Source: Candidatus Doudnabacteria bacterium RIFCSPHIGHO2_01_FULL_46_14 (GTDB lineage: Bacteria; Patescibacteriota; Doudnabacteria; UBA920; 2-01-FULL-46-14). Taken from it: a DNA stretch of 64,000 bases. Location of the stretch: positions 4,108 through 68,107 of the forward strand of contig MFEK01000007.1 of the NCBI GenBank assembly GCA_001779925.1, read 5' to 3'. The translations under genes and the position numbers were made by a program. Within the stretch, counting starts at the first letter, position 1, and each line of letters begins with the position of its first letter. This document shows positions 14,062-64,000 of the stretch, one piece after another. The notes beneath the pieces are model-generated. The model was not told the DNA's origin and ran no database searches. It saw only the letters and a list, made by a program, of their open reading frames with translations.

Positions 14062-14071
14062 TTCGCTACTT

Positions 14072-26799: not shown

Positions 26800-26886
26800 A
26801 GCTACGAACTACGAATTTTTTACGAAAATACGAAAAAGAACTGATTTGTTCGTAATTTCGTAGCCTTATTTCGTAATTTCGTAGCC
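26800..26886. repeat. TACGAAT-heptamer palindromic element (family B), empty copy directly upstream of dnaE
   Basis: gctacgaactacgaattttttacgaaaatacgaaaaa...gttcgtaatttcgtagcc (right arm duplicated). Confidence 0.8.
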
Positions 26887-26887
26887 T

Positions 26888-29800: not shown

Positions 29801-30508
29801 GCGGACGAAAACCAGTATTTCACTATCGGCGGCATCATCACCCGCATCCAAAACATTCTCACCAAAAAAGGCGATCAGATGTGTTTTGCGGATATTGAGG
29901 ACGAAAGCGGCAAGCTGGAGCTGGTTGTGTTTCCGAATGTTTATAGTGAATCCAAATCCTTGCTCGCGGTAGACCAAATCCTTCTCACGAGAGGCAAGAT
30001 TTCCGATAAAGATGGGGAAATAAAACTGCTGGTGGATTCTATGAAATTGATTGGAGACGCGGATTTGGAAAAATGGGTTAACACTCGTAACTCCCCTAAC
30101 CCCTCTTACCCTAAGAGGGGTATTGCCCCCCACCTAACCTCCCCCACTGCCTACTCCGCCGAAGTGGCTACGGAGGCCGGACAGGGGGGAGGAAAAAATG
30201 CAGGGGATTTCCCTCCCCAGAACAGGACTTACTCTTCTATCTTCCCTCCCCCCGGTGAGGAGGGACTGAGGGAGGGGGGGCGCGTTCTCAAAATCAAAAT
30301 CCCCAAAACCGCAGACCCGCAGGTGTTTAACAAATTAAAAATCGTGTTCAACAAATTCCCAGGCGAGGTGGCCGTGTCCCTCGTCATCCCCGACCGCGAA
30401 GGAACGGAACGGGAAGTGAAAACTGACTTTAAAGTAGACAGCACCGACCTGTTCAAAACCGAGTTGCGGGAACTCTTACGCCAGAGCATCCAGCACGTCA
30501 AGTCTTGA
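26888..30508 (+). CDS. dnaE: DNA polymerase III alpha subunit with a ~190-nt in-frame repeat insertion near the C-terminus
   Basis: PHP domain (HLHVHSHYSLLDG), polymerase core, OB-fold region. The C-terminal region contains translated family A palindromic elements at 30089-30281. Confidence 0.9.
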   Translation: MQFTHLHVHSHYSLLDGLSKIPDLISAVQKKGMEAVALTDHGALYGALEFYKAARRSGVKPIIGLEAYVAPGSMLEKKTPADADYFHMILLARNNEGYQNLLKLVTASHLEGYYYKPRIDKKLLSQYSSGLIGLSGCLRGEIARAVAAGNFDSAKRIALEYQNIFEPDGFYLELQRNLEEPQQQTVNDGLIKISRETSIPIVATNDAHYLNPEDNAAQDILVCIGTGTTVEQTDRLDMRKMKLHLASPEEMAELFSDIPEAIANTQKIADMVDLTLSLEKRHFPSFPVPEGQNAEDYLEKLSLRGLKEKKPDRELPAEILTRLNYELDVIKKKGYAGYFLVVADFVNWSRARGIISTTRGSAAGSLVAYALGITTLNPIEYKLPFERFLNPYRPTPPDIDMDFADNRRDEVLNYVSDKYGRDRVAQIVTFGTMMARAAVRDVGRALGVAYSKCDRIAKMIPLGKQGFHMTIEKALTLAPELKEAFDRDQETRNLIELARKVEGCARHASVHAAGVVIAPTSLSSYTPLQLDTDNKNIITQYDMHSVEEAGLVKMDFLGIRNLSILGNAVEVVRTSRGIDIDLGKIPLDDPKTYKLLSLGRTMGVFQLGGSGMTKYLVDLKPTNIFDIMAMISLYRPGPMESIPEFIQRKHNAALITYIDPRLKEILDMSYGVITYQEDVLLTAITVAGYTWEEADKLRKAMGKKIPKEMMAQKEKFIQGAITGGLSSEKAVKLWALIEPFAAYGFGKAHAASYAMVAYQTAYMKANFPVEFMAAVMTAEAGDNEKVAQAVNECASLEIEVLPPDVNESLANFTAINDRQIRFGLNAIKNLGSDVIETIIAERAKGGEFASLGDFVRRMKTRNFNKKSWEALAKSGSLDRYGERNQLLLNTEIILEYAKAEQKQLASGQSMLLGGATAAAQELLLRNAPQASDQEKLSWEKELLGLYVSSHPLRSHRALLEKYCKPINVLSIADENQYFTIGGIITRIQNILTKKGDQMCFADIEDESGKLELVVFPNVYSESKSLLAVDQILLTRGKISDKDGEIKLLVDSMKLIGDADLEKWVNTRNSPNPSYPKRGIAPHLTSPTAYSAEVATEAGQGGGKNAGDFPPQNRTYSSIFPPPGEEGLREGGRVLKIKIPKTADPQVFNKLKIVFNKFPGEVAVSLVIPDREGTEREVKTDFKVDSTDLFKTELRELLRQSIQHVKS
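30089..30281. repeat. GC-rich composite palindromic elements (family A) inside dnaE, in frame
   Basis: aactcccctaacccctcttaccctaagagggg...ccccccacctaacctccccc...ggacaggggggaggaaaaa...cttccctccccccggtgaggagggactgagggaggggggg. Confidence 0.85.
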
Positions 30509-48399: not shown

Positions 48400-48480
48400 T
48401 CAAAATGTAAATATCAAAATGTAAAATGACAGTGTTTAAATTTTAAAATTTTTAATTGTCATTTCGATTTTTACACTTTG
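48400..48480. repeat. AT-rich palindromic intergenic element, copy 2 (upstream of recG)
   Basis: aaaatgtaaatatcaaaatgtaaaatgacagtgtttaaattttaaaatttttaattgtcatttcga. Confidence 0.7.
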
Positions 48481-50612: not shown

Positions 50613-50616
50613 GTCT

Positions 50617-50765
50617 TTTCCCCTCCCTTGATGGGAGGGGTAAGGGAAGGGTGAAATTTAATTATGCCACCCCCCACCTATAACCTCCCCCATCGAGCCT
50701 ACCCCAAAACCGAGTACGCTTTTCGGAGACCCCGGCAAGGGGGAGGAACTAAATTCAGGGGGATA
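50617..50765. repeat. GC-rich composite palindromic element cluster (family A), intergenic
   Basis: cccctcccttgatgggaggggtaagggaagggtgaaa...caccccccacctataacctcccccatcgagcctaccccaaaaccgagtacgcttttcggagaccccggcaagggggaggaa; 80-nt core about 90% identical to the guaA insertion. Confidence 0.85.
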
Positions 50766-51766
50766 ATTCCAAAGAATACAAATTACCCGCGCCGTCAATA
50801 TAAAAGAGGATGTCCTTGAATGGATGCAAAAACGCGTCGCGGACAGGACCGCCGGGAAAACTGCCCCAGTCTTTGACATCGCCGGTTCTGGTATTTTCTT
50901 CTTTCAGCAAACCATTGGTCGCGAATATCACACCGCCGCTATCCCTGCTCCATATCGCAAAATCGGTACTGGCGATGCTAAAATCCTTTCTCTGCTTGGT
51001 GGCAAAATCATAGAACCAAAATACCAAAACCCCTGCCTTGTTTTCGCTGACCAAAAGCTTGCTACCGTCCGGAGAAAACCGAGTATTTTCATACCTGCCG
51101 TTATCCGCAATATTGCTGAATGTTGACGCGGCCAGATCAACATGAATCAAAGGCGAGGTTGTGGCGTTTGCAAACATCACAAGCTCCAGCTTGCGCGGAT
51201 GCGCGACAAGTCGATAGTCGGACCGGAACAGGTCGCCGATTTTGGCAAAATTACTGCTGTTGATATCAGAAATTTTCAGTTCGTGATTATCGCCTATTAC
51301 CCAATCATAGGCAATTCTGGCATCGCCGGCGAGGATAACCGGCTCGCGAATATTGTCCGGATACTGCGAAAGCTGTTTATCACTGGCGCGAACATAAGTG
51401 TAGCGAAGGTGTCCGTCAATATTTTGCGCAACGATGAAATCACTGCCTTTTTCCTGCCATTGTACGTCCGAGGGATTTTTTATGGTTTCCGGAAGGATAA
51501 ACTCTTCGCGTGCTCCAGATTCAAGATTTACGCTAAGGATTTTACCATCCAGAGTCAGGTACCATACCCGCTCTCCGTTGAATGAAGGAACAGCCGAGAC
51601 AACCTCTTGGGCTAGTATTTTTTGGGCAGGGTTCTCGTCAGAAACAGTATTCTCAGGCGCAGGAACCGGTACGGTATCGCGATTGCGGCGAATATAAAGA
51701 AAACCGAGACTCAATATCAGCAGTATAGTGAGAATGACCGTGGTGATTATAAAAATTTTTCTCATT
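50755..51766 (-). CDS. Hypothetical membrane-anchored protein, possible beta-propeller repeats (start MRKIFII)
   Basis: N-terminal TM then repetitive beta-rich sequence. Flanked on both sides by family A elements; the ORF-track N-terminal extension into the repeat was trimmed. Confidence 0.4.
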
Positions 51767-51783
51767 GTACATCTCCTGTCTTT

Positions 51784-51866
51784 TCCCCTCCCTTGATGGG
51801 AGGGGTTGGGGGAGGGTGATAAATTAGACAGTTCACCCCACCTTACCTCCCCCCTCAAAGAGGGAA
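51784..51866. repeat. GC-rich palindromic element cluster (family A), intergenic
   Basis: cccctcccttgatgggaggggttgggggagggtgataaa...caccccaccttacctcccccctcaaagaggg. Confidence 0.8.
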
Positions 51867-51914
51867 GAACTAAAACAATATTGGGAATTATATACAAAGC
51901 TACCCTAAAGTAAA

Positions 51915-52148
51915 TTACTCTGTTGCTGGTGGGGCATACTTAAAAATATAAGTCCGCTTTACCGCCGCCGCACAAGCCTTACGGCCTTCCTCATTAAAAT
52001 CAGAACTAGAGCAATACCTAATACTGTTTATCACTTCCAAATTATGCTTTTGAATCCCGATATACAGATTAAATCCAAACAACAAAATAGACAGCCCAAA
52101 GAATACCAGTAGTGTAAACCTGAACCAATTTTCTTTAATAAATCTCAT
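51915..52148 (-). CDS. Small membrane protein (77 aa, MRFIKENWFRF...)
   Basis: The upstream part of the 135-aa ORF-track ORF is occupied by a tRNA gene, so the start was moved to the internal Met with a TM helix. Confidence 0.3.
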   Translation of the reverse strand: MRFIKENWFRFTLLVFFGLSILLFGFNLYIGIQKHNLEVINSIRYCSSSDFNEEGRKACAAAVKRTYIFKYAPPATE

Positions 52149-52233
52149 AACTCTTGACAATCCTGTGGATACTTGATAATATATTCTTTCGTTCTTTGTT
52201 ATACTAACTTTAGCAGTTTTTGAAATAATGGCC

Positions 52234-52318
52234 AGCCTCGCACGGGATTCGAACCCGTATGTCCGCCACGGACGATAGTTTTCTAAACTATTGCGTATAC
52301 CAGTTCCGCCAGCGAGGC
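52234..52318 (-). tRNA. Class II tRNA (Leu-like body) with unusual anticodon loop UUAGAAA (reads as AGA), T discriminator, no encoded CCA
   Basis: GCCTCGCTGGCGGAACTGGTATACGCAATAGTTTAGAAAACTATCGTCCGTGGCGGACATACGGGTTCGAATCCCGTGCGAGGCT. Perfect 7-bp acceptor, D-arm like tRNA-Leu, long variable hairpin, canonical T-arm. Confidence 0.5.
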
Positions 52319-52405
52319 ACAAAGCCGCTCAAAGTGCAGATTAGGATTTAACGATAAAGTTCCAACGAGTCCTTTCTTCCTAATCTGCGCCCTGGGCGGC
52401 TTTTA

Positions 52406-53158
52406 TTATGCGTCAGTAGTATCAGGTGGTCGAGGAGATTTTTTGGATAAATAGTCTTCAGCTACGGCTTTCAAGTCTTTTAATGCTTGACGATATTTGG
52501 CACTCAATTCGTCATCAAAATTTGTATCGCTTTGAAAATCAGGCGGCACAAGCAAGGTAAATTTTCCATCTACGATTTTAATCGGAAATAAACCAGATGG
52601 CGTATGCGGCTGATTATGAATAACATTCGGAGTTTTGGTTGAACTTTCTGTCCGTGCCTTTTTTTCTGCCCTCGGCTGTCGTATTCTGGAAACTACCGAT
52701 CCCTCCTCTTTTAATCCTGCATATTCCAACAACCGATTAAATACGGGAATTGCTGTTCTGACTAATCGCCCCGAAAGGCCATATTGCGCTATGAACTCAT
52801 TGTTAAGATCGTCGGGCGATAAATCCTGCGGTGCTTCAACTACGCTAAATAGTTTGTGATATGCGGCTCTAACGATTTTTTCAAACTCTTTTTTGCGAAC
52901 ATCGCCTTTCAATCGCACTTTTTGAAAAAGCTCCGTCGGTTTGCCTTGTTCATCTATTAGTCCCAAAAAGCGCAAAGCATTCACGGCAAGGAGAGCGTCA
53001 GTATCCCCGAATCCATACCCTGTAAAAATGGACTGATTAATTTCAGCGTAATTACGGGTAGAAATTAGCTCAATCGTTTTATCCAGCTTCGCTACGCTGA
53101 AATACGGCGGCTTCATTTGCCTGGGATTTTCAGTTTTGGTGTCTTCTTGGTCGGTCAT
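52406..53158 (-). CDS. Hypothetical protein
   Basis: 250 aa, no recognisable motif; adjacent to the IS element. Confidence 0.35.
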   Translation of the reverse strand: MTDQEDTKTENPRQMKPPYFSVAKLDKTIELISTRNYAEINQSIFTGYGFGDTDALLAVNALRFLGLIDEQGKPTELFQKVRLKGDVRKKEFEKIVRAAYHKLFSVVEAPQDLSPDDLNNEFIAQYGLSGRLVRTAIPVFNRLLEYAGLKEEGSVVSRIRQPRAEKKARTESSTKTPNVIHNQPHTPSGLFPIKIVDGKFTLLVPPDFQSDTNFDDELSAKYRQALKDLKAVAEDYLSKKSPRPPDTTDA

Positions 53159-53409
53159 ATAGATAGAGGGTAATATAATGCGAGGATAAAGTCAAGGGGG
53201 CTGGAGTAGGCTCGTATTACTTTTTTCACTAGATTCAGCATATATCCTAAACTTGAACTTGTCAAATGGTTAAGTCCAAGTGTCATACTTGAATTAGGTA
53301 GAATGTGATAAATTAGTCATTTCTCTGACCGCATAATGGCTTATTTTAGCCAATTATTTATCCACAATTCGGACTTGACAACCCCACAATACTGATATAT
53401 ATTGCATAT

Positions 53410-54333
53410 ATGAACAACATTAAGCCCAAGACACTAATAGACTTCTTAGCCAACTTCAAAGATGAGACTACCTGCCAGAGATACTTTGAGGAGGTTCGCT
53501 TCCGAAACGGCCAGTATTGCGCCCATTGTGGCCATACCACTATCTACCGCTTCAAGGACGGCAAACGCTTTCGCTGTGCCGATTGCCGCAGGGATTTCAC
53601 TATCAAAACCAATACAATCTTTGGTGAAAGCAAAATTCCCCTGCAAAAATGGTTTATAGCCATTTATCTGCTCTCTACATCTAAAAAGGGCATTTCCTCG
53701 GTTCAGCTTGCTAAACAAGTTGGCACTACCCAAAAAACGGCCTGGTTCATGGATCACCGCATAAGGGAGGCCATGAAACAAAACAAAGGCCAGCTATTCG
53801 GGACTGTGGAAGTGGACGAAACCTATATCGGCGGTAAAGAGAAAAATAAGCACTTCAATAAAAGAGCTAAAGGCACGCAAGGCCGAAGCACAGAAACTAA
53901 AACGCCAGTCATGGGTTTAATTCAGCGCGGCGGCAAAGTCAAAGCGTCTGTGTTGGAAAATGTCAGCATGAAAGTTATTGAGCAGAACATCGTTGACCAT
54001 GTAAAGCCAGGCTCAAAAATTTACACTGACGATTTCCTATCATACTCACGAATTAAAAAGCTCTACCCGCACGAAGCCGTAAAGCACGGCAAAGGTGAGT
54101 ATGTCCGGGCAGGCGGTATTCACTCAAACAGCGTGGAAAGTTTCTGGGCGATTTTCAAAAGGGGTTATCATGGCACATACCATAAAATGAGCCGGAAGCA
54201 CTTACAGAGATATGTTGATGAGTTCGTATTTCGCTTCAACGCAAAGGCAGTAGATTTTGGCGAAACCTTTAGCGATATGGTTATGAAAGTATCGGCCAGC
54301 GAAACATTGCGCTACAAGGCTCTAGTAAAGTAA
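53410..54333 (+). mobile_element. IS1595-family transposase gene (N-terminal zinc-ribbon plus DDE domain)
   Basis: FKDETTCQRYFEEVRFRNGQYCAHCGHTTIYRF...RFRCADCRRDFTIKTNTIFGESKIPLQKWFIAIYLLSTSKKGISSVQLAKQVGTTQKTAWFMDHRIREAM, the hallmark IS1595/ISXO2 N-terminus. Terminal inverted repeats not resolved. Confidence 0.8.
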
Positions 54334-54676
54334 AATCTATGTATGAGCAGAAAATCAAAAATTCACGAGCCAATCCCTGTTAGTTTTGACAAAATCCTAA
54401 CTGGTATTGCGGATGAGAAAAAACCTCGTAAGCATAAGGAGCGAAAGCGCAAAGTGCGAGGGTATAAGAAAAAAGCATGAGAAATTGGATTAAAGAAACC
54501 TGGTTCAAAATTATAATCGCCACTTTTCTATTAGTCGTGTGCTATTTTCTTATCTACATTACTTTCAAAGGATTTCCTGTTTGCAATACTGATCCAAAAA
54601 CATCTCTAATTTTAAGACACGGTTGCAAAACTTTTTAAAAGTTTAGGGTAGCTTTGTATATAATTCCCACAATATT

Positions 54677-55987
54677 CTATTCTGAATTAATTGGCCCGCT
54701 ATCTTGTTCGCATTTGCGTAGGCTAATGTAAACATGATCAGCATTTTTGTCAGCACAAGAAACCTCGTCGGCATTAACAGTCTCACATACTGCACGGTTC
54801 AAGGCAATGCCTAAAACCTCACTGCAATACTGAGCGGCTTGCAAAATCTGCCCGCCCATCACGGCTTCATTGCCCACACCCTCACTGCCGGCAAAATCTG
54901 CAGCTAATGCCCCGGTTTTGCCAAGTGCTCCGCCATAATGGCAGGAATTAACTGGATAGGCACACTGACCGCAGATTTCCGCACCCCTGGTATAGTTGCA
55001 GACCTCGCCGCCTTGCTCAAAGGTCGAAACCCCTCCCGCATCAGGCGCTTGCGTACGAATGCAGGAAACAAGCCGGTCAAGGTCCGGATCGGTGCGACGC
55101 GGATGCGGCGCATTGTTTTGCTGGGCCAAAATCTCCGGCGCACTGCACATGGCAGTCAAACCGCTTTCCACGATTCCTGCGACACTGCCCGTCACTCCCG
55201 ACAGGCTCCCGCCGACGCTATTCAGCGAGTCGCAGACCTGCTTGGGAACCCCTATATATTCCGTATAATCAAAAGCTTCCAGAAGCGATAGCAGCCCTTG
55301 CGGATTGCAGACTATATAGAGAGGCCAGACAATAAAAATAACCAGGAGCAAGACTACCAATAAAATCGCACCAAGATCTATGACAGCCAGCTGAACCTTC
55401 TGCGCTATCGAGAATTCGCCAAACAGTTTTGATCCGAGCTTCGAAGCCAAAAAATGCGCATTCAAATATAAAAAAGGAATTATCCATCCGAATAAAGTAA
55501 GAATGCTGACCCAAAATGCTGTGAAAGCAGTGTACAATAAATACCAGCTGGCAGAGCTTTTGGCGATATTAGTCAAGCTTTCACCCTGCATTGCGCCTGA
55601 TATCGCTCCTCCCAGGGCTGCCGATTTTCCGCCGCTCATTTTTCCAACCTTGCCTTTGTATTTAGTTTTATTGAAAGCTTTCCTTGCAAGCCCTTTGCCT
55701 TGAGCAAATTTTGCAGCTTGACCGCCAGCAAAACTTGACGCGGCTTTGCGCCCGGCGCCATGATGGCCTGTTCCAGCTTCCTTAAAACCATGAGCCCCTT
55801 CACGAAATTCGTCGGCCAGGTCGTGCTGGCCTGCCATATAAGCGCCAAGTTGGCCGGCCCTCATGGCGTATTTACCAAGCTTCAAAAGCCGTTTTTTGTT
55901 TTTGCTGCTTGTAAGTTTGTCTAGATTATGCAGCTCTTCTTCGGTCAAGGTTGCCATAATACCTTCTCTTAGTTGCAAATTGATCAA
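54677..55987 (-). CDS. Membrane protein with Gly-rich N-terminal region, two TM helices and Cys-rich C-terminal domain; last gene of the VirB4 operon
   Basis: 436 aa, TM helices at ~150-180 and ~205-235, 12 cysteines in the C-terminal 150 aa. Confidence 0.4.
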   Translation of the reverse strand: MINLQLREGIMATLTEEELHNLDKLTSSKNKKRLLKLGKYAMRAGQLGAYMAGQHDLADEFREGAHGFKEAGTGHHGAGRKAASSFAGGQAAKFAQGKGLARKAFNKTKYKGKVGKMSGGKSAALGGAISGAMQGESLTNIAKSSASWYLLYTAFTAFWVSILTLFGWIIPFLYLNAHFLASKLGSKLFGEFSIAQKVQLAVIDLGAILLVVLLLVIFIVWPLYIVCNPQGLLSLLEAFDYTEYIGVPKQVCDSLNSVGGSLSGVTGSVAGIVESGLTAMCSAPEILAQQNNAPHPRRTDPDLDRLVSCIRTQAPDAGGVSTFEQGGEVCNYTRGAEICGQCAYPVNSCHYGGALGKTGALAADFAGSEGVGNEAVMGGQILQAAQYCSEVLGIALNRAVCETVNADEVSCADKNADHVYISLRKCEQDSGPINSE

Positions 55988-56948
55988 AAGTCTTGTCTAC
56001 CAGTCTGGCCAGTGTTTTATTTCGCGTGATCATTTTCCCCGCTTTGAAAAGCGGAGCGTAAATTTCCCTCCCTATCCCGGCTGTCCTTGCCACAGCAGCG
56101 CTTCTTGTCAGGATCTTTGCTCCAAGAACCGAACCCTTGACTGCTTTGGTGCCGATTGCACCAACGCCGGTCATGTCTAGAATGAAAAAACTGCCTCCTT
56201 CTAAAGCGTGCAAAGCGCGCTTCCAACCGGACAATTTTTGTCCATCTAACGTTTTTCCCTTTACTGCTTCAACCAGCATTTTCGCAGGACCAATGACAGG
56301 AATGAAATCAATGCCTGTGGAAGCGATTTTTTTTAATCTCCCGCCGTCGCCTGCCTCCTCTGCTTGTTTAATTTCTTTTACGGTGCTATCAAAGCTCTCT
56401 TTCGGGATAGCTAATTTGAATTTTTCTACTACTCCCAGAGCAGTCTTTGCCAGATTTTTATAATCAGAGCCGTCTTCGACTTTATCGAGCGCCTGAGATA
56501 TCTGTGGCGCAAGAGTGCGCAGTTTTTCCAATATCTCCAGCGATTTTTCGGAAAAAGTTTTTTTCTCGCGCAGGCTTCCAAAAAAAGCCAGCGCTTCTTG
56601 GGCGAATCTTTCTGAGGCTGTATCCAGGTCTTTTGATTCAAAAACTTCTGATAGAACCCGGCCCAGCTCCTGCTCGGCGGTTTTATCAACAACTGGCTCA
56701 GCATCAGATTCGGGGTTATCTTCCACATTTTCCCTTAAACCGATTGATGCTCTCACTTCTTGAATCTTTACTTCGTCATCAGCTTCTCTCTCGTAGACTG
56801 TGGCGTCCCACGCCGCCTCTCCTTCTTCATCATCCAAAGCTTCTTCCATAGTTGTGATATGTGGTGTTGCCCGCAATTCCCGCAAACCCTCGCGGAATTG
56901 ATGGGTTTTATCGAGATCGGCCTGGTTTTCCTGAAGTCTTTCCGTCAT
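55926..56948 (-). CDS. Acidic hypothetical protein, translationally coupled to VirB4
   Basis: 340 aa; start overlaps the VirB4 stop (ATGA). Confidence 0.4.
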   Translation of the reverse strand: MTERLQENQADLDKTHQFREGLRELRATPHITTMEEALDDEEGEAAWDATVYEREADDEVKIQEVRASIGLRENVEDNPESDAEPVVDKTAEQELGRVLSEVFESKDLDTASERFAQEALAFFGSLREKKTFSEKSLEILEKLRTLAPQISQALDKVEDGSDYKNLAKTALGVVEKFKLAIPKESFDSTVKEIKQAEEAGDGGRLKKIASTGIDFIPVIGPAKMLVEAVKGKTLDGQKLSGWKRALHALEGGSFFILDMTGVGAIGTKAVKGSVLGAKILTRSAAVARTAGIGREIYAPLFKAGKMITRNKTLARLVDKTFDQFATKRRYYGNLDRRRAA

Positions 56949-58759
56949 TGCTTTTCCCCTTCCATCTCCTCTTTGGCGCGGTCGATTTCCATGCGCTGGC
57001 GGGGGTCGGTCGTGATGATCTGGTCCTCGGTGTAGGAGGCTACAATGCGGATCGCGGCGTGTTTGAGGCCGGCAAAAAAGATGCCCTCGCCAACCTCGCT
57101 CTCCAATAGCAGATATTTTTCCCCTTCAGTCAGGAAAAAGGTCTGGGCCACTGTGTCAATCGCGGCCGGCGATTGTTTTAAAAGAAGCTGGATGGACGAG
57201 TTGGTAACAATCGGCCGGCCATAGGGACTCGCCAAAAAATCTGACACGTCCTGAGTTATAGTTGTAACCCCCAAATAATATTTCCTAGCGCGTTTGACTA
57301 GCCCGAACAAAAACCTGGCAGAGTCCTCGTGCTGCATCATCCACCACGCTTCATCCACGACAAGGATGCGCTTCTTCAGAGACGAACGCACTTCATTCCA
57401 AATAAATCCGAGAACGACATAGATCGCAATCGGTCGAAGGCTATCCTCCAAATCGCGCACGGAAAAAACCACCAGCTGATTATTCATATTAATGTTGGTG
57501 GACTGGTTGAAAATTCCGGCAAACGTGCCTTCCACGTATTTGCCCAGCCGCTGGGCCAGAGATTCCGCTCCGGTTATGCCGGAAAGAACATTGACTAAAT
57601 CCTGCATGGTGGGCATTTCTTTGCCGACAAAATCACTCCCCGGAGTAATGTCGCGCGTGGCATAAGTTTCCCAGAGAGCGCGATCCAGCATGGCTTCTTC
57701 CGTGGGATCAAGCTTGCCGAGCATGAGACCCATGAGTCCCATGAGGCTGATCACGGCTGAACGCAAAATATCCTCTGGCGATTCATCCTCGATGCCCTTT
57801 GGCAGATCAAATGGATTGATGCGCGAGTTCGAGTTGAGCGACACGTTCAAGAACGACCCGCCGACCGCCTCAGCCAAATGCTTGTATTCATTTTCCGGGT
57901 CAATCGCGATCACGTCCGTGCCGAGCATCAACGAGCGTAAAATATCAAGTTTTATAGCGTACGATTTGCCGGCACCTGATTTGGCGAAAATCACAGAGTT
58001 GGCATTTTCCATTTGAAACCGGTCAAAAAGTATCAAGCTGTTATTGTGGCGGTTGATACCGTAAAGAATTCCGTCATTGGAGCTAACCTCTGCCGACACA
58101 AACGGAAAAGTCGTGGACAACGGGCCAGTATTCATATTCGCGGTTATGGCAAGCTCATCGCTGCCCAGGGGAAGCGTGGAATTGAACCCTTGCTCTGCCT
58201 GCAGAACCGCCCTTTTACTGACAATGAGCTTGGAAGATAAAAGCGATTCCACGTTTGCCGATATCTTGTCGAGACTAGCCAGATCATCAGCGTAAATCGT
58301 GTAATAAAGCGCGAAACGGAAATAACGCTCCGTGCCCTGCATCAGAGCGTCGCGCAGCTCCTCAACATCGCGATAAGCTGTTTCCAGCATCGGATCCCGC
58401 ACTGCTCCTTTCTGCTGGTTCATGGAAATGGTTGCCTGCAGCTGCCCGACTTTGTTTTTTAGTTTTTTCATGACCACGTCCGTTTCCATGGGATAAATAA
58501 ACATGGAAATATCCATGGGCTGGTCAAGGTTGATGAGCGGCGACAGCCAGTTGGAGGAGAGAAAACGCGGATAGGTCAGCACAAAAAAAGTACGCGCGTA
58601 TTTGCCTGAAACCTGGATATGCGTAGATTCGATCTGCATTGCGGAAGGCGCGATCAGATCGAGAAGCGAAGTCATGCCTTTTTTAAAGGCTTGCTCGGCC
58701 TCCAATATCTCGCGGCCGACAGCGGCTTCAGTAGATTTATTTTTGTTGAATAATTTCAT
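56945..58759 (-). CDS. virB4: VirB4/TraC/TrbE-family type IV secretion ATPase
   Basis: Walker A AKSGAGKS, Walker B/hallmark LVVDEAWWMM (DEAW), 604 aa. Confidence 0.75.
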   Translation of the reverse strand: MKLFNKNKSTEAAVGREILEAEQAFKKGMTSLLDLIAPSAMQIESTHIQVSGKYARTFFVLTYPRFLSSNWLSPLINLDQPMDISMFIYPMETDVVMKKLKNKVGQLQATISMNQQKGAVRDPMLETAYRDVEELRDALMQGTERYFRFALYYTIYADDLASLDKISANVESLLSSKLIVSKRAVLQAEQGFNSTLPLGSDELAITANMNTGPLSTTFPFVSAEVSSNDGILYGINRHNNSLILFDRFQMENANSVIFAKSGAGKSYAIKLDILRSLMLGTDVIAIDPENEYKHLAEAVGGSFLNVSLNSNSRINPFDLPKGIEDESPEDILRSAVISLMGLMGLMLGKLDPTEEAMLDRALWETYATRDITPGSDFVGKEMPTMQDLVNVLSGITGAESLAQRLGKYVEGTFAGIFNQSTNINMNNQLVVFSVRDLEDSLRPIAIYVVLGFIWNEVRSSLKKRILVVDEAWWMMQHEDSARFLFGLVKRARKYYLGVTTITQDVSDFLASPYGRPIVTNSSIQLLLKQSPAAIDTVAQTFFLTEGEKYLLLESEVGEGIFFAGLKHAAIRIVASYTEDQIITTDPRQRMEIDRAKEEMEGEKQ

Positions 58760-58762
58760 GGT

Positions 58763-58828
58763 TTTACGAATTACGAATATTTACGAATGTACGAATTCGT
58801 AAATTCGTACGATTCGTTATTCGTAAAG
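58763..58828. repeat. TACGAAT-heptamer palindromic element (family B), empty copy between virB4 and the upstream gene
   Basis: ttacgaattacgaatatttacgaatgtacgaattcgtaaattcgtacgattcgttattcgtaaa, a perfect central palindrome gtacgaattcgtac. Confidence 0.8.
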
Positions 58829-58830
58829 CT

Positions 58831-59508
58831 TTATTCATTTATCTCTATCCCCTTAATATTATCAGCGTGCAGGATGGAGGCAGAATCCAGGTTATAGGCC
58901 TGGTAAAGGAGCTCAACTAGTTCCTCCGTGGTCAGCAAAAGCGAACGCAGTCCCACACCGCCGAGCTCTGATATAACGTGATTGGTGCGCTCATCCAGCT
59001 TGGTCTTCGCGCGATGGAAATCTCCCTGAGAGGTTGCAATCTGGGAAAGCGGATTGAAAAAGGTTCTAATCCTTGACCCCCAGGTTTGTTTTACCGGCTG
59101 GGCCGAATACGGCACCACGACATAGAAATTTTTCTGCATGATATTGGCAAACTCCACAAGCTTGCCGACGTATTCGATGTACTCGGTCATTTGGATCCGC
59201 AGCAGCTCATTGGTTTGTCCAGCGGCCAGGCCTTTGAGCTTCTCCAGATAACCGCCGATGTCGAGAATGCGCGAGTGGATCAAAATCTGCAAAGGAAAAT
59301 CTATGGAGTTGAGCATGCCCTGATAAGCGCTAACTAGCGCATTTTGCTCGTCTTCCGATTTTAGAGCGAAATTCGTCGAAGACACCGCGATAACCGCGCG
59401 CAGTGAGCCGTCTTTTAGTACCAATGTGTCTTCTTTTATTTCCGCCACATTGATATATTTTTGGGTGGAATACGAGGGGCCTTTAGTTTTTGCTTTTTGC
59501 ATTTCCAT
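58831..59508 (-). CDS. Hypothetical protein of the T4SS-like operon
   Basis: 225 aa, no TM, no motif recognised. Confidence 0.35.
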   Translation of the reverse strand: MEMQKAKTKGPSYSTQKYINVAEIKEDTLVLKDGSLRAVIAVSSTNFALKSEDEQNALVSAYQGMLNSIDFPLQILIHSRILDIGGYLEKLKGLAAGQTNELLRIQMTEYIEYVGKLVEFANIMQKNFYVVVPYSAQPVKQTWGSRIRTFFNPLSQIATSQGDFHRAKTKLDERTNHVISELGGVGLRSLLLTTEELVELLYQAYNLDSASILHADNIKGIEINE

Positions 59509-59511
59509 AAT

Positions 59512-59617
59512 GGCTACGAACTACGAAATGAATACGAAAATACGAAACGAATCTTGAAAATATTGTATATAAATAAATGGATTAGCGTCATTTTTTCGTA
59601 TTTTCGTAAGGATTCGT
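59512..59617. repeat. TACGAAT-heptamer palindromic element (family B), empty copy with 45-nt AT-rich spacer
   Basis: ggctacgaactacgaaatgaatacgaaaatacgaaacgaa...tttcgtattttcgtaaggattcgtagttcgtagc. Confidence 0.8.
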
Positions 59618-60043
59618 AGTTCGTAGCAGCCGTTCTTCTTCCGCGCTCTGCGCATCCAAAATGTAAGCTAAATTTTTAAGCCGCGATGCGACTGGGGCGT
59701 CTTGTGATCCTACGGATTCCTGAACCGCGGCTTGTTGCTGCTTGTGCACTGTTATGGCGCTCCCCTGTCTTGAAAAAACGCGATACCGCGGCGCTGTCAC
59801 GAAACGCATGAGGTTGGGCAGATTGACCAGCAAGGATCGGCCGTTGAATTTATAGAAAGTTACGGGCAGGATGACCAGAAGCGTTAAAAGCATTAAAATC
59901 GCAAAAATAAAACCAACTCCGAAAATCACCCAATAGACGAGCCCCAGAATCCCGCAAAAAATCAGCATCAGAAACTGCTTGACAGTCAGGTGCGGGAGAA
60001 TCTGATCCTCAACATCTACGAATTGTGGGAGAGAATACTGCAT
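59588..60043 (-). CDS. Small two-TM membrane protein (position consistent with a VirB3/TcpE-like T4SS component)
   Basis: 151 aa, two adjacent TM helices (FLMLIFCGILGLVYWVIFGVGFIFAILMLLTLLVILP). Confidence 0.4.
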   Translation of the reverse strand: MQYSLPQFVDVEDQILPHLTVKQFLMLIFCGILGLVYWVIFGVGFIFAILMLLTLLVILPVTFYKFNGRSLLVNLPNLMRFVTAPRYRVFSRQGSAITVHKQQQAAVQESVGSQDAPVASRLKNLAYILDAQSAEEERLLRTTNPYENTKK

Positions 60044-60044
60044 A

Positions 60045-60522
60045 GGCTACGAATTACGAACGAATACGAAAAATACGAAATTATTGAGCATTGACAATTC
60101 TTTTATACGCAACCCCATTAGCAGTAAAGTTTGCCAAGATTCCTAAAGATAAATTGAAAGCTTTCAAATAACCAAGAACCTGTTCAATGTTTTTATTCGA
60201 AAAGTTTCTGCCGTTTTTTATTTCCAGTATTACCTTGTCTTCAATAAGAAAATCGAGAAAATACTTACCTATTTTAGTATCTTGGTACTTTAATTCTATA
60301 GGCACCTGCTCTTTAAACTTTAAACCGCTTCTTTTTAATTCCACATTATTTAAAGCTCTCTGGTAATGCTTTTCGAGATAGCCGCTTCCCAACTCTTTAG
60401 ATACCTTAAATAAAACACCCATTATTTGATAACTCAATTCCGGATATATTAAATCCTTTCTTTTTAGGAGGGTTTTTTGCACTTTTGTTTCGTATTTTCG
60501 TAAGTATTCGTAGTTCGTAGCC
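60045..60522 (-). mobile_element. Family B palindromic element carrying a GxxExxY gene between inverted TACGAA-repeat arms
   Basis: Left arm ggctacgaattacgaacgaatacgaaaaatacgaaa (60045-60080) and right arm tttcgtattttcgtaagtattcgtagttcgtagcc (60486-60522) are reverse complements; a tandem extra right arm lies at 60565-60600. Confidence 0.65.
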
Positions 60523-60524
60523 AA
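60081..60524 (-). CDS. GxxExxY-family protein (PD-(D/E)XK nuclease-like)
   Basis: IYPELSYQIMGVLFKVSKELGSGYLEKHYQRAL...GKYFLDFLIEDKVILEIK...LGILANF; paralog of 61430..61825. Confidence 0.75.
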   Translation of the reverse strand: MATNYEYLRKYETKVQKTLLKRKDLIYPELSYQIMGVLFKVSKELGSGYLEKHYQRALNNVELKRSGLKFKEQVPIELKYQDTKIGKYFLDFLIEDKVILEIKNGRNFSNKNIEQVLGYLKAFNLSLGILANFTANGVAYKRIVNAQ

Positions 60525-60601
60525 TTTATTATAGCATAAATTGAAAAAATAACAAAAAACCTCCTTTTCGTATTTTCGTAAGTATTCGTAGTTCGTAGCC
60601 T

Positions 60602-61390
60602 CTATAATCTCTTGAGATTCGTCCGGAAATCGGTCAGGGTCTCGAATTCCTCACGCGAAAGCTCCGTGTTTTTTTCGTGGTTCAGAAGAGCCATACCAAC
60701 CTTGAGATAGGATTTATGCAAGGGGCTTTTTTCAAACGCTAGAAGGATTTCTTCCGCAGGAATCCGTTTCGCTATCAGAGATAAGATATATTGATTTAGA
60801 TTTTCCAAAAATACATAGATGGAAGATTCGCGTCGGAGATCCTCCATAGACAGAGACGCCAGCTTGGCAAGCTCGGGAATGACAGGCTTTTGTGGAATGG
60901 CGTCAGGCCTGCGAATTGATGCTGGAATGTTGAATTTGGAATTTGGAATATCGGCTTTTGGTATTGTGGATTCTTTCTTTACCGGAAGTGGAATTTGCGG
61001 TTTGGGTTTTTCAATATTCAATATTCGAGATTCTATATTCTTTTGTGCGGGCGGAGCAGGAGGCTCGGAAATCCGCGGACGATTCATTATAGTCGGAGCG
61101 GGTGCTTGAGGCGCAGGTGGTTTTATATCAGTAACAGGCGCCCGTAACTCCCTCTCTCTACCTCTTAGATCAAGAGGGGGTTGCCCGCCTCGACTCGCTC
61201 CGGCGAGGCTGGGGGGGGCGTTATTGAAAACTTTTGACGGCAGCTTTATTGATAAAATCCGGTCAAGCTCTTTTATTTCCTGCTCAGTCATTCTGGGCAA
61301 CAAAAATAGCCATTCTTTCTTCTCGGTCATTGATAACATACTGGATGACTCGATTCTTTGTTTGATCTGAGTAAACTGTTCTGGGCTCAT
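60602..61390 (-). CDS. Proline-rich hypothetical protein
   Basis: 262 aa with a P-rich central region (PPAPPAQ, KPKPQIPLP). Confidence 0.4.
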   Translation of the reverse strand: MSPEQFTQIKQRIESSSMLSMTEKKEWLFLLPRMTEQEIKELDRILSIKLPSKVFNNAPPSLAGASRGGQPPLDLRGRERELRAPVTDIKPPAPQAPAPTIMNRPRISEPPAPPAQKNIESRILNIEKPKPQIPLPVKKESTIPKADIPNSKFNIPASIRRPDAIPQKPVIPELAKLASLSMEDLRRESSIYVFLENLNQYILSLIAKRIPAEEILLAFEKSPLHKSYLKVGMALLNHEKNTELSREEFETLTDFRTNLKRL

Positions 61391-61394
61391 CTAG

Positions 61395-61858
61395 GTTTTA
61401 CGAATAACGAATCAATACGAATGTACGAATTATAAATTCACCAGCCTCTTAAAATGTAGTTTACGTGGAGCAAAGTAGGCTAGAATGCCCAATCTTAGTT
61501 TGTTTGCATGTAAATACTGTAATACTTGATCTATATGTGCCTTGGCAAAACGATCGCCTTTCTTGATTTCCAGAATAACTTTATCCTCTATCAAAAAATC
61601 TAAAAAATTCTTACCGATGACTTGACCATTATAAATGACAGGTACACAGACCTGTTCTCGAAAATCGAGACTACTATTTTTTAGAGCTAACGCTATTGCC
61701 TTTTGATAGGTCTTCTCACTTAAACCATAACCGATTTTGTTATAAACGTCGAACAGTATTCCTGTTATTTGATAACTTAACTCAGGATAAACAATATCCT
61801 CTCTTTTCAATACGGGTTTCGTCATTCGTAAATTCGTACAATTCGTTATTCGTAAAGC
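61395..61858 (-). mobile_element. Family B palindromic element (second arm subtype) carrying a GxxExxY gene
   Basis: Left arm ttttacgaataacgaatcaatacgaatgtacgaat (61395-61432) and right arm attcgtaaattcgtacaattcgttattcgtaaa (61823-61858) are reverse complements. Confidence 0.65.
61430..61825 (-). CDS. GxxExxY-family protein (PD-(D/E)XK nuclease-like)
   Basis: VYPELSYQITGILFDVYNKIGYGLSEKTYQKAI...GKNFLDFLIEDKVILEIKKG...LGILAYF. Confidence 0.75.
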   Translation of the reverse strand: MTKPVLKREDIVYPELSYQITGILFDVYNKIGYGLSEKTYQKAIALALKNSSLDFREQVCVPVIYNGQVIGKNFLDFLIEDKVILEIKKGDRFAKAHIDQVLQYLHANKLRLGILAYFAPRKLHFKRLVNL

Positions 61859-61864
61859 TTACAA

Positions 61865-63196
61865 CTACACTTCTTCTTCTAGCTTCTTCTCCAGCTCCTG
61901 CAGCTTTTGCTCCACTCTGTCATCGCCGGACACTACCTGCCCGCCTTCCTCCTTACTGCCGGCCCGCGCGACCGCCGCGTTTACGGAAAATGATCGCTCC
62001 TCCTCCTGTATTTTATGAAGCTCCTCTAGGGTTGAGGGTTTGGCTACGGGTGAAATAGGCCTTGGCGGAACCGCAGGCGCGGGAGGCATGGCTGCGCGCG
62101 TCATAACTCTGCCGGCCGAAGGCAGGTTAGGCATCAATTTCGGCGGCCTGGGCGGCGGAGGGAGAACTCTCTTGGGCGATTGGCGATTGGCGATTGGCGA
62201 TTGGGTCGGCGGTATTTTGCTAGTCGCTAATCGCTGTTCGCTAATCGCTGAGCTGGGCCTTATCTCGCTGATGAGCTCTCGTGGGGTCAGCCCCTGCGCC
62301 TGTGAATTGGCAGGAGGAGGCTGAGGTTTCACAGCCGCTGGTGGAGGCGGGGTCTGCTGCGGTCTGGGAATTTGAGGCGGCCTAACCTGCGATGCTGAGG
62401 GCGAGCTGGCCCTCGGTATAGGTACGGTAACATGCTCGGCTCTGTAATATGGCGCTGTCCTAGGAATTTGCGCTGCCGGTAAAAAGCTTTTCAGCCAATC
62501 ATATAACTCAAGCACTCTCCTCAGAATAGTCTTTTCGTCCTCGCGCAGTCCCCTAACATTCGGACTATGGGTGACGTAGGACGCGCGCTCGACCCCTCCC
62601 CTTTTGACCTGGCCGCCCGTAGTACCCGCAAGCGACACAGAGTACTGATTGTAATCAATGATCCAGTTCGAGACAATAGGATCCTCGTCATGTTCCCTGC
62701 CTTTGAGCTTCAAGCTTACTGTGCCGAGATACTCCTCGCTTGTTTCCATGGCTTTTACCAGCGTCTTGGCAATTTCCTGCTGGCCGTCGGGAAATTTATA
62801 GTAGACTAAAAAGAGATCATTGATCTTTTGAGTGATGTCAAAATCGAGAACCTCCATAGTAGAAAGAAGATTCTCTTTCATAAAAGTTGAAACATCGTTG
62901 GGGGACATCATTACTAAAAAGCAAGCTTTGAGAACGGACAGGAGGCGCATATATTCCTCAAAGATATCTGGCCTTTGGTTCACCAGGTCGGGAATTTTTT
63001 CCAGATGCTTATGCAGGATCTGCAATGCCCGCGAAGCATCAGCGCTGTCGCTGCTGTCCGCCGTGTCCATAACAAATAGCTTCACCTGTGCCATAATCCG
63101 TTCATCGCCAAGCCATTCAGGCTTGAGCAATTCAAAATTCTTCCAGGTAATGGAGGCGATATTTTGAGGAGTCAGATTTTGCTGTTCGTTGGCCAT
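61865..63196 (-). CDS. Proline-rich protein with C-terminal coiled coil
   Basis: 443 aa; structured N-domain, then PPQIPRPQQTPPPPAAVKPQPPP..., C-terminal EEERS...KLQELEKKLEEE. Confidence 0.4.
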   Translation of the reverse strand: MANEQQNLTPQNIASITWKNFELLKPEWLGDERIMAQVKLFVMDTADSSDSADASRALQILHKHLEKIPDLVNQRPDIFEEYMRLLSVLKACFLVMMSPNDVSTFMKENLLSTMEVLDFDITQKINDLFLVYYKFPDGQQEIAKTLVKAMETSEEYLGTVSLKLKGREHDEDPIVSNWIIDYNQYSVSLAGTTGGQVKRGGVERASYVTHSPNVRGLREDEKTILRRVLELYDWLKSFLPAAQIPRTAPYYRAEHVTVPIPRASSPSASQVRPPQIPRPQQTPPPPAAVKPQPPPANSQAQGLTPRELISEIRPSSAISEQRLATSKIPPTQSPIANRQSPKRVLPPPPRPPKLMPNLPSAGRVMTRAAMPPAPAVPPRPISPVAKPSTLEELHKIQEEERSFSVNAAVARAGSKEEGGQVVSGDDRVEQKLQELEKKLEEEV

Positions 63197-63199
63197 ACT

Positions 63200-64000
63200 T
63201 TATGGAGTAATGATGGTCGGACCACCGGGATTAGTGCCTCCAGGGCTTGGATTTGCTCCCGAAGGCGGCGCGCCAGGAACATTTCCGGGCGTTCCCGGTG
63301 CATTAGGTCCAGGTGTGGTCAATCCCGGCCCGCCGCCAGGAAATGTGGTAGTGCTTCGCGCTCCGCTGCCAAAACCCGTTGGAGGCGTGATTATTGGTTG
63401 CGCCGCACCTCCTCCCTGGCCTGCCCCGCTCCCTCCTCTGGCACTTCTTGGTTCCCCTGGCAGGTCGCTAATATTAATTCTTTCGATTGCTCCTTGGCCA
63501 GCAGAAGGAATCCCCTTAGCATCAAGATACTCATTAAAATTTGTAGCAAAATGACTGCGTTGTTCATAGGTGAATAAACGATCGCTTCCTGTTATGGCAT
63601 TGAACATTTTTCGGTTCAAGCGTGCAGTTGTTACCATCTTGTCCATGCCACGGATGTGCTGAGTCTGCTGCTCTTCTAATAATTCTTTCTTATGCGTGTC
63701 ACCACCGGACTTTGCCGTGATATCTATGTTCGTTTGTTTGACAATGTCATAATCAGGCAGTTCCCATTTACCTGTAGCAGAGTCCTGCAAAGCCCCGAAA
63801 CCCTGCAGTAAACGGCCCTGGCTTTCATGGATACGAGCGGTAATAGATTCGATGATGTTTGGCCCGACTTCATGGGTCAGCATTGAACCTAAAAGGTTCA
63901 TCCTAGTCCAGCCCTCATTTGGGTCCTGGTCGTCAATCACGGCTGCCTCAATATTTCTCGCATGCGTACCGGCATTGCCGCGCCGCAGCTTGATATGCGC
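63200..64000 (-). CDS. Hypothetical Gly/Pro-rich C-terminal protein, 5' end beyond the window
   Basis: The frame stays open upstream of the GTG at 63938 to the window edge; C-terminal GGGPGLTTPGPNAPGTPGNVPG repeats; stop overlaps the next gene start. Confidence 0.4.
   Translation of the reverse strand, partial: AHIKLRRGNAGTHARNIEAAVIDDQDPNEGWTRMNLLGSMLTHEVGPNIIESITARIHESQGRLLQGFGALQDSATGKWELPDYDIVKQTNIDITAKSGGDTHKKELLEEQQTQHIRGMDKMVTTARLNRKMFNAITGSDRLFTYEQRSHFATNFNEYLDAKGIPSAGQGAIERINISDLPGEPRSARGGSGAGQGGGAAQPIITPPTGFGSGARSTTTFPGGGPGLTTPGPNAPGTPGNVPGAPPSGANPSPGGTNPGGPTIITP

Follow-up and report, generated by a model that had tools for sequence, protein, structure and literature searches.

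A chromosomal type IV secretion operon of the Patescibacteria kind in a Candidatus Doudnabacteria genome, and the hairpin elements at its gene junctions

Monoderm conjugation systems of the MPF-FATA type (mating-pair formation, class FATA) are represented by the TrsC-TrsD-TrsE proteins of plasmids pGO1/pSK41, the PrgI-PrgJ-PrgH proteins of pCF10 and CTn2 of C. difficile (CD1110). A type IV secretion system (T4SS) whose VirB4 clade derives from MPF-FATA has recently been described in the Patescibacteria: TrsD is the most abundant accessory component, PrgI, VirB6 and VirB2-like pilins are present, VirB8 and VirB1 are scarce, relaxases are almost absent and, in the class ABY1, the T4SS is co-localised with recG, radA and comF (PMC12102498). 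Several T4SS genes are essential in Southlakia epibionticum (strain ML1, cited in PMC12102498), and the Patescibacteria T4SS is considered the likely basis of epibiotic life in a very large and mostly uncultured share of the Bacteria. Here we describe positions 54677-64000 of a 64,000-nucleotide (nt) stretch of contig MFEK01000007.1 from Candidatus Doudnabacteria bacterium RIFCSPHIGHO2_01_FULL_46_14; this whole stretch is referred to below as the window, and coordinates are those of the window unless another contig is named. The region is very probably the distal two-thirds of a chromosomal T4SS operon of a Candidatus Doudnabacteria genome (Patescibacteria, or candidate phyla radiation, CPR), most likely a non-conjugative translocon for an epibiotic lifestyle, with hairpins whose pattern suggests autonomous and non-autonomous mobile elements.

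These hairpins, some of which contain an open reading frame (ORF), are the less expected part of the finding and are worth following up. To our knowledge, elements of this type have so far been characterised only as intervening sequences (IVSs) of 23S rRNA, and we are aware of no settled account, after some 30 years, of the origin, mobility or function either of the IVSs or of the common genes annotated as 'four helix bundle' or 'GxxExxY'. The 23S rRNA IVS of Coxiella has a 28-35-bp stem, arms made of ~7-nt repeats and a small loop ORF, possibly of the S23p/four-helix-bundle family, and is excised by RNase III (PMC4990558).

A preliminary description of the window, made from the DNA letters, had placed ten minus-strand genes in the region. 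All ten ORFs are reproduced at the same coordinates by the ORF list, but two of them, of 131 and 147 amino acids (aa), turn out to be hairpin cargo rather than operon genes. In the direction of transcription the ORFs are:

63200-64000, minus strand: VirB6/TrbL-like 3' end, last 266 codons, frame open to the window edge
61865-63196, minus strand: p443, a conserved operon protein of 443 aa, 10.8% proline
61430-61825, minus strand: GxxExxY ORF of hairpin element E4, 131 aa, loop cargo
60602-61390, minus strand: p262, a conserved operon protein of 262 aa, 11.8% proline
60081-60524, minus strand: GxxExxY ORF of hairpin element E3, 147 aa, loop cargo, with an alternative GTG start at 60482
59588-60043, minus strand: VirB3/PrgI-like protein, 151 aa, two transmembrane segments, placed by the PrgI matches of its orthologues
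58831-59508, minus strand: TrsD-like protein, 225 aa, matching VirB4 N-terminal profile positions
56945-58759, minus strand: predicted VirB4 ATPase, 604 aa, above the NF045971 cut-off
55926-56948, minus strand: PT-TG-domain protein, 340 aa, from its Pfam PT-TG match
54677-55987, minus strand: Cys-rich membrane protein, 436 aa, 12 Cys and two transmembrane segments, from homologue alignment and a domain model

The identification of the system begins with the 604-aa protein, which scores 369.8 bits on NCBIfam NF045971 (conju_CD1110; cut-off 325) and also matches Pfam P-loop_TraG, AAA_10 and CagE_TrbE_VirB. Its Walker A motif GAGKS (aa 262-266, 57962-57976) and Walker B motif VVDEAW (aa 467-472, 57344-57361) are both present, bearing out the earlier recognition of a VirB4-family ATPase with Walker A and DEAW motifs. 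We identify it, from its profile score and closest relatives, as a predicted VirB4 ATPase of the MPF-FATA type, CD1110 family. A VirB4 scan of a genome collection yielded 80 related loci (designated by L numbers below), and counts given over 84 loci include four copies of the present genome.

The VirB4 protein aligns to NF045971 over profile positions 181-728 only, so that the canonical N-terminal ~180 positions are missing. Those positions are matched by the product of the adjoining gene: the 225-aa protein aligns to positions 1-128 of NF045971 and to positions 94-233 of a further VirB4 model, NF045975 (E = 3.7e-9). It matches the TrsD model NF041427 with E = 2.2e-4, as do all 36 of its 36 orthologues (best 7e-10, with all scores under the curated 200-bit cut-off), and has a precomputed assignment to Pfam PF26593 (TraC-like). 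Judged by these profiles, the 225-aa protein is the predicted TrsD, a free-standing homologue of the VirB4 N-terminal domain. TrsD adjoins VirB4 in 83 of the 84 loci. We considered, and rejected, the 71-nt hairpin that lies between the two genes in the window as the cause of the VirB4 split, as the split is found in those 83 loci with or without the hairpin and is a known arrangement.

The small two-transmembrane protein encoded ahead of TrsD and VirB4 matches Pfam PrgI with E = 7.7e-4 (20.4 bits; cut-off 27) and has both its transmembrane segments within aa 15-58. Since PrgI is matched by all 33 of its 33 orthologues (best 4.9e-13), the earlier suggestion of a VirB3-like gene ahead of VirB4, in a Gram-positive-type module, holds, and the protein is a predicted VirB3/PrgI-like two-transmembrane membrane anchor. 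At the upstream end of the region, the partial Gly/Pro-rich ORF could be followed beyond the window on L001, a 69-kb contig of the European Nucleotide Archive (ENA) and one of several on which an exact match to the 443-aa protein revealed the same locus. There the complete gene occupies positions 6392-9997, with its start at about window-equivalent 66805, and encodes 1201 aa. The protein has six hydrophobic segments, one N-terminal and signal-like and five between aa 240 and 527, the latter falling in the region matched by TrbL/VirB6; the match to Pfam TrbL has E = 8e-4 (19.6 bits, under the 25.9 cut-off), and 11 of 22 orthologues also match (best 1.6e-7). The partial ORF is thus predicted to be the C-terminal tail of a VirB6/TrbL-like polytopic protein. 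The preliminary description had recognised no relaxase, coupling protein or VirB6 and had proposed a search beyond the window: that search recovered the VirB6-like gene and no VirD4 or relaxase in the ORFs scanned there, and the first two absences stand for the ORFs scanned in the window.

On L001 the operon runs for ~7.6 kb beyond position 64000, as far as ksgA, and includes at least four further co-directional genes, so the earlier term 'minimal' does not apply. Upstream of the 1201-aa gene lie a 127-aa 23S_rRNA_IVP/four-helix-bundle gene (hereafter IVP) and then, at the operon start (L001 2182-5982, window-equivalent ~67215-71015), three genes whose products, of 623, 316 and 320 aa, are secreted or membrane-anchored; beyond these come ksgA and then uvrD. 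The 623-aa protein has a signal peptide, the 316-aa protein has IPGLKD repeats and the 320-aa protein has an N-terminal transmembrane anchor and Asp-rich, DxDxDG-like motifs. The scans run gave no family assignment for any of the three, which are candidates for a surface or adhesion role in the system.

The same core recurs widely. In the 80 related loci VirB4 is 62-88% identical to that of the window, and nearly all are metagenome-assembled genomes labelled as Patescibacteria (Doudnabacteria, Falkowbacteria, 'Saccharibacteria'), the few labelled otherwise being probably mis-binned. The order VirB6-p443-p262-VirB3-TrsD-VirB4 recurs across them with chromosomal flanks; VirB3-TrsD-VirB4 is found in nearly all, and tblastn, at its sensitivity, detects the VirB6-like protein in 57 of the 84 loci, p443 in 28 and p262 in 22. 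In the window, recG lies convergent ~4 kb downstream of the operon; a recG match is present in 55 loci, convergent where the strand was examined, and ksgA is found upstream in the seven loci whose sequence extends to that point. Housekeeping genes (guaA, guaB, thrS, gatAB, clpB, prfA, dnaE and recG) make up the rest of the large ORFs scanned in the window, tRNAs are also present, and the GC content of the cluster is that of its surroundings.

Of the remaining operon proteins, p443 and p262 match no Pfam, NCBIfam, PHROG or PADLOC family and have no predicted transmembrane segment or signal peptide, which leaves their earlier interpretation as surface or channel components unsupported; they are conserved cytoplasmic proline-rich proteins specific to Doudnabacteria. 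In p443 a globular domain of ~250 aa at the N-terminus is joined by a Pro-rich linker to a C-terminal coil, and the N-terminal domain is kept at the same operon position in 25 loci. p262 begins with a helix motif and, after a Pro-rich linker, ends in a domain of ~80 aa; it is matched at full length in closer loci (for example L005-L007, L009, L028 and L055) and by its C-terminal part only in L012, L016, L021, L026 and L059. In L012, L016 and L026, which are more distant Doudnabacteria, the p443 N-terminal domain and the p262 C-terminal domain form a single ORF (window counterpart 60602-63196):

L012, 5970-7502: p443/p262-type fused ORF
L016, 5092-6564: p443/p262-type fused ORF
L026, 6566-8164: p443/p262-type fused ORF

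In the closer genomes the junction between the two genes holds a GxxExxY ORF (window, L007), an IVP ORF (L006) or nothing (L009, L028). A homologue search with p443 returned three proteins only, probably swamped by its Pro-rich region, and sequence and profile searches for Protein Data Bank (PDB) relatives of p443, p262 and the Cys-rich protein gave only low-complexity noise.

Downstream of VirB4, and overlapping its stop codon, starts the gene for the 340-aa protein, which matches Pfam PT-TG at aa 206-272 (56133-56333; 29.9 bits, cut-off 23.5). It had been described as acidic; this is true of the N-terminal half, but overall the protein is only mildly so (59 acidic and 54 basic residues). NCBI lists the protein from a metagenome-assembled genome of Candidatus Doudnabacteria. 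It has only five homologues among 5.8 billion clusters, and in L005, L010 and L026 no such gene separates VirB4 from the Cys-rich gene. The C-terminal half is conserved, including the ~68 residues that follow the PT-TG domain, which are present in all five homologues, and the N-terminal half is variable. A polymorphic toxin was considered and rejected, given this conserved C-terminus and the absence of an immunity-like gene next to it, the following gene being that for the conserved Cys-rich protein. We regard the PT-TG protein as a lineage-specific accessory component or candidate substrate, not as a classical polymorphic toxin.

The Cys-rich protein has a Lys/Gly-rich N-terminus, two transmembrane helices and a disulfide-rich C-terminal domain (aa 268-436, 54680-55186). 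Among its 14 homologues the distant ones carry Pfam PF18895 (T4SS_pilin), and their membrane/pilin-like segment aligns N-terminal of the shared Cys-rich domain. In this domain S348-C349-H350 and H418 are invariant and D364 is nearly so. A model of the domain (predicted local distance difference test, pLDDT, 86.2; predicted template modelling score, pTM, 0.83) finds its best PDB/BFVD fold matches amongst L-Ala-D-Glu peptidases and M15 (DD-)carboxypeptidases, all weak (E 0.13-1.4; template modelling score 0.40-0.55). On the basis of this model, the domain is possibly a peptidoglycan peptidase of the M15/LAS type, for which a VirB1-like role would be plausible.

The junctions between these genes hold the hairpins. 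The repeat TACGAANNACGAA occurs 12 times in the window against an expectation of 0.01, with 10 of the 12 copies within 58765-61854, and clusters of ACGAA and TTCGT pair to give four inverted-repeat elements with stems of ~30-35 bp. The palindromic elements of the preliminary description are thus real as repeats, but they are hairpins able to carry ORFs and they vary between genomes. Its statement that every intergenic gap is occupied applies to all six operon gaps of at least 36 nt, which are made by the four elements and consist entirely of element sequence; it fails at the three junctions with no usable gap, where the VirB6-like and p443 genes are separated by 3 nt and the 604/340 and 340/436 gene pairs overlap. 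With two further copies elsewhere in the window, the elements are:

61391-61864, minus strand: E4, subtype 1; 5' arm 61826-61864, GxxExxY ORF 61430-61825 in the loop, 3' arm 61391-61429
60044-60601, minus strand: E3, subtype 2; outer 5' arm 60563-60601, inner 5' arm 60485-60521, ORF 60081-60524, 3' arm 60044-60080
59513-59627, minus strand: E2, subtype 2, without ORF, AT-rich loop of ~30-40 nt; minimum free energy (MFE) -42 kcal/mol, z -7.1
58760-58830, minus strand: E1, subtype 1, without ORF, filling the TrsD/VirB4 junction; MFE -25.9 kcal/mol, z -5.8
23296-23362: subtype 1 copy without ORF, ending a few nt from the L25/Ctc start codon (minus strand); MFE -28.0 kcal/mol, z -6.2
26800-26887: subtype 2 copy without ORF, ending a few nt from the dnaE start codon (plus strand); MFE -28.8 kcal/mol, z -5.3

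The arm duplex has an energy of -34.7 kcal/mol in E4 and of -40.1 and -39.4 kcal/mol in E3. Each of the two subtypes comprises one ORF-bearing and two empty copies (E4 with E1 and 23296-23362; E3 with E2 and 26800-26887), and the arms are 89-97% identical within a subtype. E1 is E4 minus its loop ORF, the arms of the two being 97% and 89% identical, and the E2 arms align with those of E3 and of the hairpin at 26800-26887. This pairing of ORF-bearing and empty copies with near-identical arms suggests autonomous and non-autonomous mobile elements. The E4 ORF matches PDDEXK_3 (9.1e-31) and TIGR04256 GxxExxY (1.1e-30) and has an intact D...ExK block, FLDFLIEDKVILEIK, at 61562-61606; the E3 ORF matches the same two models (1.5e-31 and 3.6e-32), again with the block intact. 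From these matches both are predicted to be GxxExxY PD-(D/E)XK nucleases carried as hairpin cargo, not secretion genes. ORFs occupy the loops of E3, of E4 and of an element on L001 beyond the window, where the IVP gene sits in a third hairpin of unrelated sequence.

All copies lie between protein-coding genes or at their ends, and some reach into them. The 5' arm of E2 (59591-59627) encodes the last ~12 codons of the VirB3-like gene, the C-terminal TTNPYENTKK overlapping the arm, and on L001 the first codons of the VirB6-like gene are arm sequence. The duplicated 5' arm of E3 encloses a promoter-like site, TTGTTA-16-TGcTATAAT with an extended -10, at 60528-60555. Promoter-like -10 boxes are also seen just 5' of the 5' arm ahead of virB3 in L005, L010, L014, L021, L024 and L077, several of them (for example in L010, L014 and L021) in the extended TGnTATAAT form like that in the window; internal promoters may thus accompany the elements or the sites where they insert. 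Rfam recognises no known RNA family at the hairpins, its only window hits being tRNAs, and a PADLOC scan of the small ORFs for defence systems gave only weak Cas4-like nuclease-core matches. Whether hairpins displace Shine-Dalgarno (SD) sites proved an uninformative question, as almost no window gene has one: an SD motif lies within 25 nt of the start in about 5 of the 45 window genes checked, so that this genome seems to initiate translation largely without SD motifs.

Across the 80 other loci we find 35 IVP or GxxExxY ORFs, distributed over 19 loci. Relative to VirB4, 33 of the 35 fall on the side of the operon, more than flank length would predict (binomial p = 1e-7), and 34 share the operon's orientation (p = 2e-9); the junctions that they occupy differ from genome to genome. 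The VirB3/TrsD junction, for example, is shorter than 40 nt in 55 of 74 loci, with an IVP ORF in six and a GxxExxY ORF in four. At the TrsD/VirB4 junction the genes of L005, the closest other species, overlap (ATGA) with no hairpin, and the TACGAA hairpin of the window is replaced in L006 by one of GTAAGC type. The arms flanking the ORFs are inverted repeats of short tandem units in most cases inspected, with sequences that vary by genome; in a scan of metagenomes of mixed organisms with the TACGAA arm, the repeat clusters adjoin IVP ORFs among the matches listed (for example L135, L156 and L200). Because the ORFs are almost always co-oriented and the junctions are variable and, in most genomes, tight, the hairpins look like sporadic insertions built like 23S rRNA IVSs, and we infer that the elements are, or formerly were, mobile. 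In L010, from a related Doudnabacteria genome, a whole GxxExxY domain of ~150 aa is inserted in-frame in RecG (13811-16423, minus strand), between the DEQH box (...VVDEQHRFGV..QR) and ...SMTATPIPRT..., with no intein-like flanks.

What does the secretion system do? As a conserved part of the core genome with no relaxase or coupling protein nearby in the ORFs scanned, the cluster most likely encodes a non-conjugative translocon that would serve an epibiotic lifestyle, like the homologous genes in Southlakia epibionticum. The machine would comprise the VirB6-like polytopic channel protein, the VirB3/PrgI-like anchor and the split ATPase pair TrsD and VirB4, accompanied by the two proline-rich proteins, by the PT-TG protein and by the Cys-rich membrane protein, which may cleave peptidoglycan through its extracellular domain. 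No relaxase or coupling protein (VirD4/TcpA) emerged when the operon proteins, the genes upstream on the contig and ten more large ORFs of the window were scanned with Pfam and NCBIfam, and the ORFs scanned in the window and in the 10 kb beyond it likewise gave no integrase. Nothing, indeed, indicates the conjugation-like function proposed in the preliminary description. That the cluster is the transfer module of a Firmicutes-type integrative conjugative element, or a plasmid remnant, and conjugates DNA is highly improbable, even though the best VirB4 model is the conjugal-transfer family of Clostridioides CTn elements, TrsD, PrgI and VirB6 together make up the set known from MPF-FATA conjugation systems and an IS1595-type transposase lies directly downstream of the operon. 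Against it stand the lack of relaxase, coupling protein and integrase just described, a GC content equal to that of the surroundings and housekeeping flanks (ksgA, uvrD, recG) that recur, on the ksgA and recG sides, in many of the 80 loci, at a VirB4 identity of 62-88%; across the whole Patescibacteria dataset relaxases were found near virB4 in 15 cases only (PMC12102498), and the adjacent IS1595 unit is separate. Unlikely too, though far less so, is a competence-type DNA-uptake T4SS (cf. H. pylori ComB and archaeal Ced) that would import host or environmental DNA for nucleotide salvage and recombination. DNA import needs no relaxase or coupling protein, recG is convergent downstream in 55 loci and uvrD lies upstream, comF, recG and radA are found beside T4SS genes in class ABY1 (PMC12102498), and VirB4 weakly matches the CedB/CedD DNA-import ATPases (E = 3e-11 over ~70 residues). 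The CedB similarity, however, is that of the P-loop region only and is far under the cut-off, ComEC and ComB-specific components are missing from the cluster, export or surface functions suit the PT-TG protein and the pilin-linked Cys-rich protein at least as well, and gene neighbourhood is circumstantial evidence.

For the hairpins, the choice lies between mobile elements and structures of the host. It is unlikely that they are ordinary regulatory structures (REP-like intercistronic stabilisers or attenuators; REP, repetitive extragenic palindromic) amongst which the small ORFs are independent genes. Each hairpin does end within ~9 nt of a start codon, one holds a promoter-like site, empty hairpins also precede the L25 and dnaE genes, and no target-site duplication or transposase was found for them. 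Yet hairpin presence, position, arm sequence and cargo differ between close genomes whose flanking genes are 60-88% identical, most genomes have junctions of <40 nt or overlapping genes, empty and ORF-bearing copies in the genome share arms of 89-97% identity, one architecture carries two unrelated ORF families and the GxxExxY domain occurs in-frame even within a RecG (L010). Transcription of the operon would be expected to yield ~30-bp duplexes of RNase III type at four junctions. We tentatively raise the possibility, itself still more doubtful than probable, that IVS-type hairpins form, in Doudnabacteria, a mobile family that prefers the intercistronic junctions of the T4SS operon, with RNase III cutting the polycistronic mRNA at each junction. 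The arms of such a family would be tandem ~7-nt repeats, the loop would be empty or hold a GxxExxY nuclease or S23p-type four-helix-bundle ORF, and the sense-oriented elements could supply stop codons, start codons and even promoters. If true, this would extend IVS biology from rRNA to mRNA and re-wire the expression of an essential host-interaction machine.

Several points weigh against the reading preferred here. The VirB3-, VirB6- and TrsD-like proteins of the window score under curated cut-offs and are identified through their position and their sets of orthologues; neither a substrate nor a pilin or VirB8 was recognised for this system; the exclusion of a relaxase and coupling protein covers only ~74 kb around virB4; and the matches behind a peptidase assignment of the Cys-rich domain carry little statistical weight (E 0.13 or worse). 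As for the hairpins, the loci are phylogenetically related, so that the enrichment statistics overcount independent events, and the figures for element density come without a genome-wide baseline. Sense and antisense stems are, moreover, equally stable (mean -28.0 and -28.1 kcal/mol, p = 0.98, with likewise no difference in G-U pairs), so selection on RNA structure is not demonstrated and a mechanism acting through hairpins at the DNA level is equally possible.

Other repeats are found between the operon and recG. A perfect 28-nt inverted repeat (51882-51909 and 54642-54669) brackets 51882-54669, a segment that contains a tRNA gene (52234-52318, minus strand), a DUF5343 gene, the IS1595-type transposase gene (53410-54333) and a 53-aa ORF, and that may have entered between recG and the T4SS operon as a composite or cargo-carrying insertion sequence unit. 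A second family of palindromic repeats, G-rich in sequence (CCCCTCCCTTGATGGGAGGGG...), flanks the ORF at 50755-51897, at 50613-50654 and 51778-51819, and also occurs inside recG (48456-50612) and dnaE (26888-30508), where it appears to be translated in-frame as insertions of the ...SPLPNPPPQGEGN... type in RecG and in the C-terminus of DnaE.

How, then, does the locus compare with known systems? With the MPF-FATA conjugation systems it shares the gene order VirB3-like, TrsD, VirB4, homologous VirB4 and VirB3 proteins, a predicted VirB6 homologue and, as with TrsG, PrgK and CwlT, a candidate cell-wall hydrolase encoded downstream of VirB4. It differs from them in that no relaxase, oriT, coupling protein, adhesin or VirB8-like protein was found, in lying on neither a plasmid nor an integrative element, and in a putative hydrolase that is not a lytic transglycosylase or CHAP protein. 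The system instead matches the chromosomal T4SS described for the Patescibacteria by Quinonero-Coronel et al. (2025; PMC12102498), and its kind is thus already known. Like that system it has a VirB4 of MPF-FATA ancestry, TrsD adjoining VirB4, PrgI/VirB3 upstream and a predicted VirB6 nearby; it is chromosomal, with recG in the neighbourhood and no relaxase or coupling protein nearby in the ORFs scanned; and a gene downstream of VirB4 has distant homologues with a T4SS pilin domain. Peculiar to the present locus are the Doudnabacteria-specific p443 and p262, the PT-TG protein, the Cys-rich putative peptidase domain and the hairpin/ORF insertions at junctions; term searches of that paper and of a collection of open-access articles found no mention of such insertions. 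The locus therefore adds a well-resolved example, with component assignments, to a recently described system, and offers details that could guide work on it: TrsD and the truncated VirB4 jointly cover one canonical VirB4, p443 and p262 are one protein in distant relatives, and a pilin-linked, Cys-rich and possibly peptidoglycan-cutting domain is encoded downstream of VirB4.

The hairpins, in turn, resemble REP elements, bacterial interspersed mosaic elements (BIMEs) and palindromes of the miniature inverted-repeat transposable element (MITE) type in being short, multi-copy, imperfect and located between operon genes, with ORF-less copies outnumbering ORF-bearing ones. They differ in that their stems are far longer, the cargo ORF lies inside the loop, in place of a REP-associated tyrosine transposase (RAYT) encoded elsewhere, and the arms differ almost wholly between related genomes. 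From the 23S rRNA IVSs they are set apart by their position between genes of an mRNA operon instead of in 23S rRNA helix 25 or 45, and by copies in the window that have either a GxxExxY nuclease in place of S23p or an empty loop; excision by RNase III would here follow by analogy. What they have in common with the IVSs of Coxiella, Leptospira and Salmonella (PMC4990558) is terminal inverted repeats, a stem of ~28-35 bp, arms of ~7-nt direct repeats, a loop ORF and a sporadic distribution, and the element just beyond the window carries the same S23p/four-helix-bundle family. That an IVS architecture should be found in a protein-coding operon, with presence/absence polymorphism and paired copies, makes its mobility and RNA processing directly testable.

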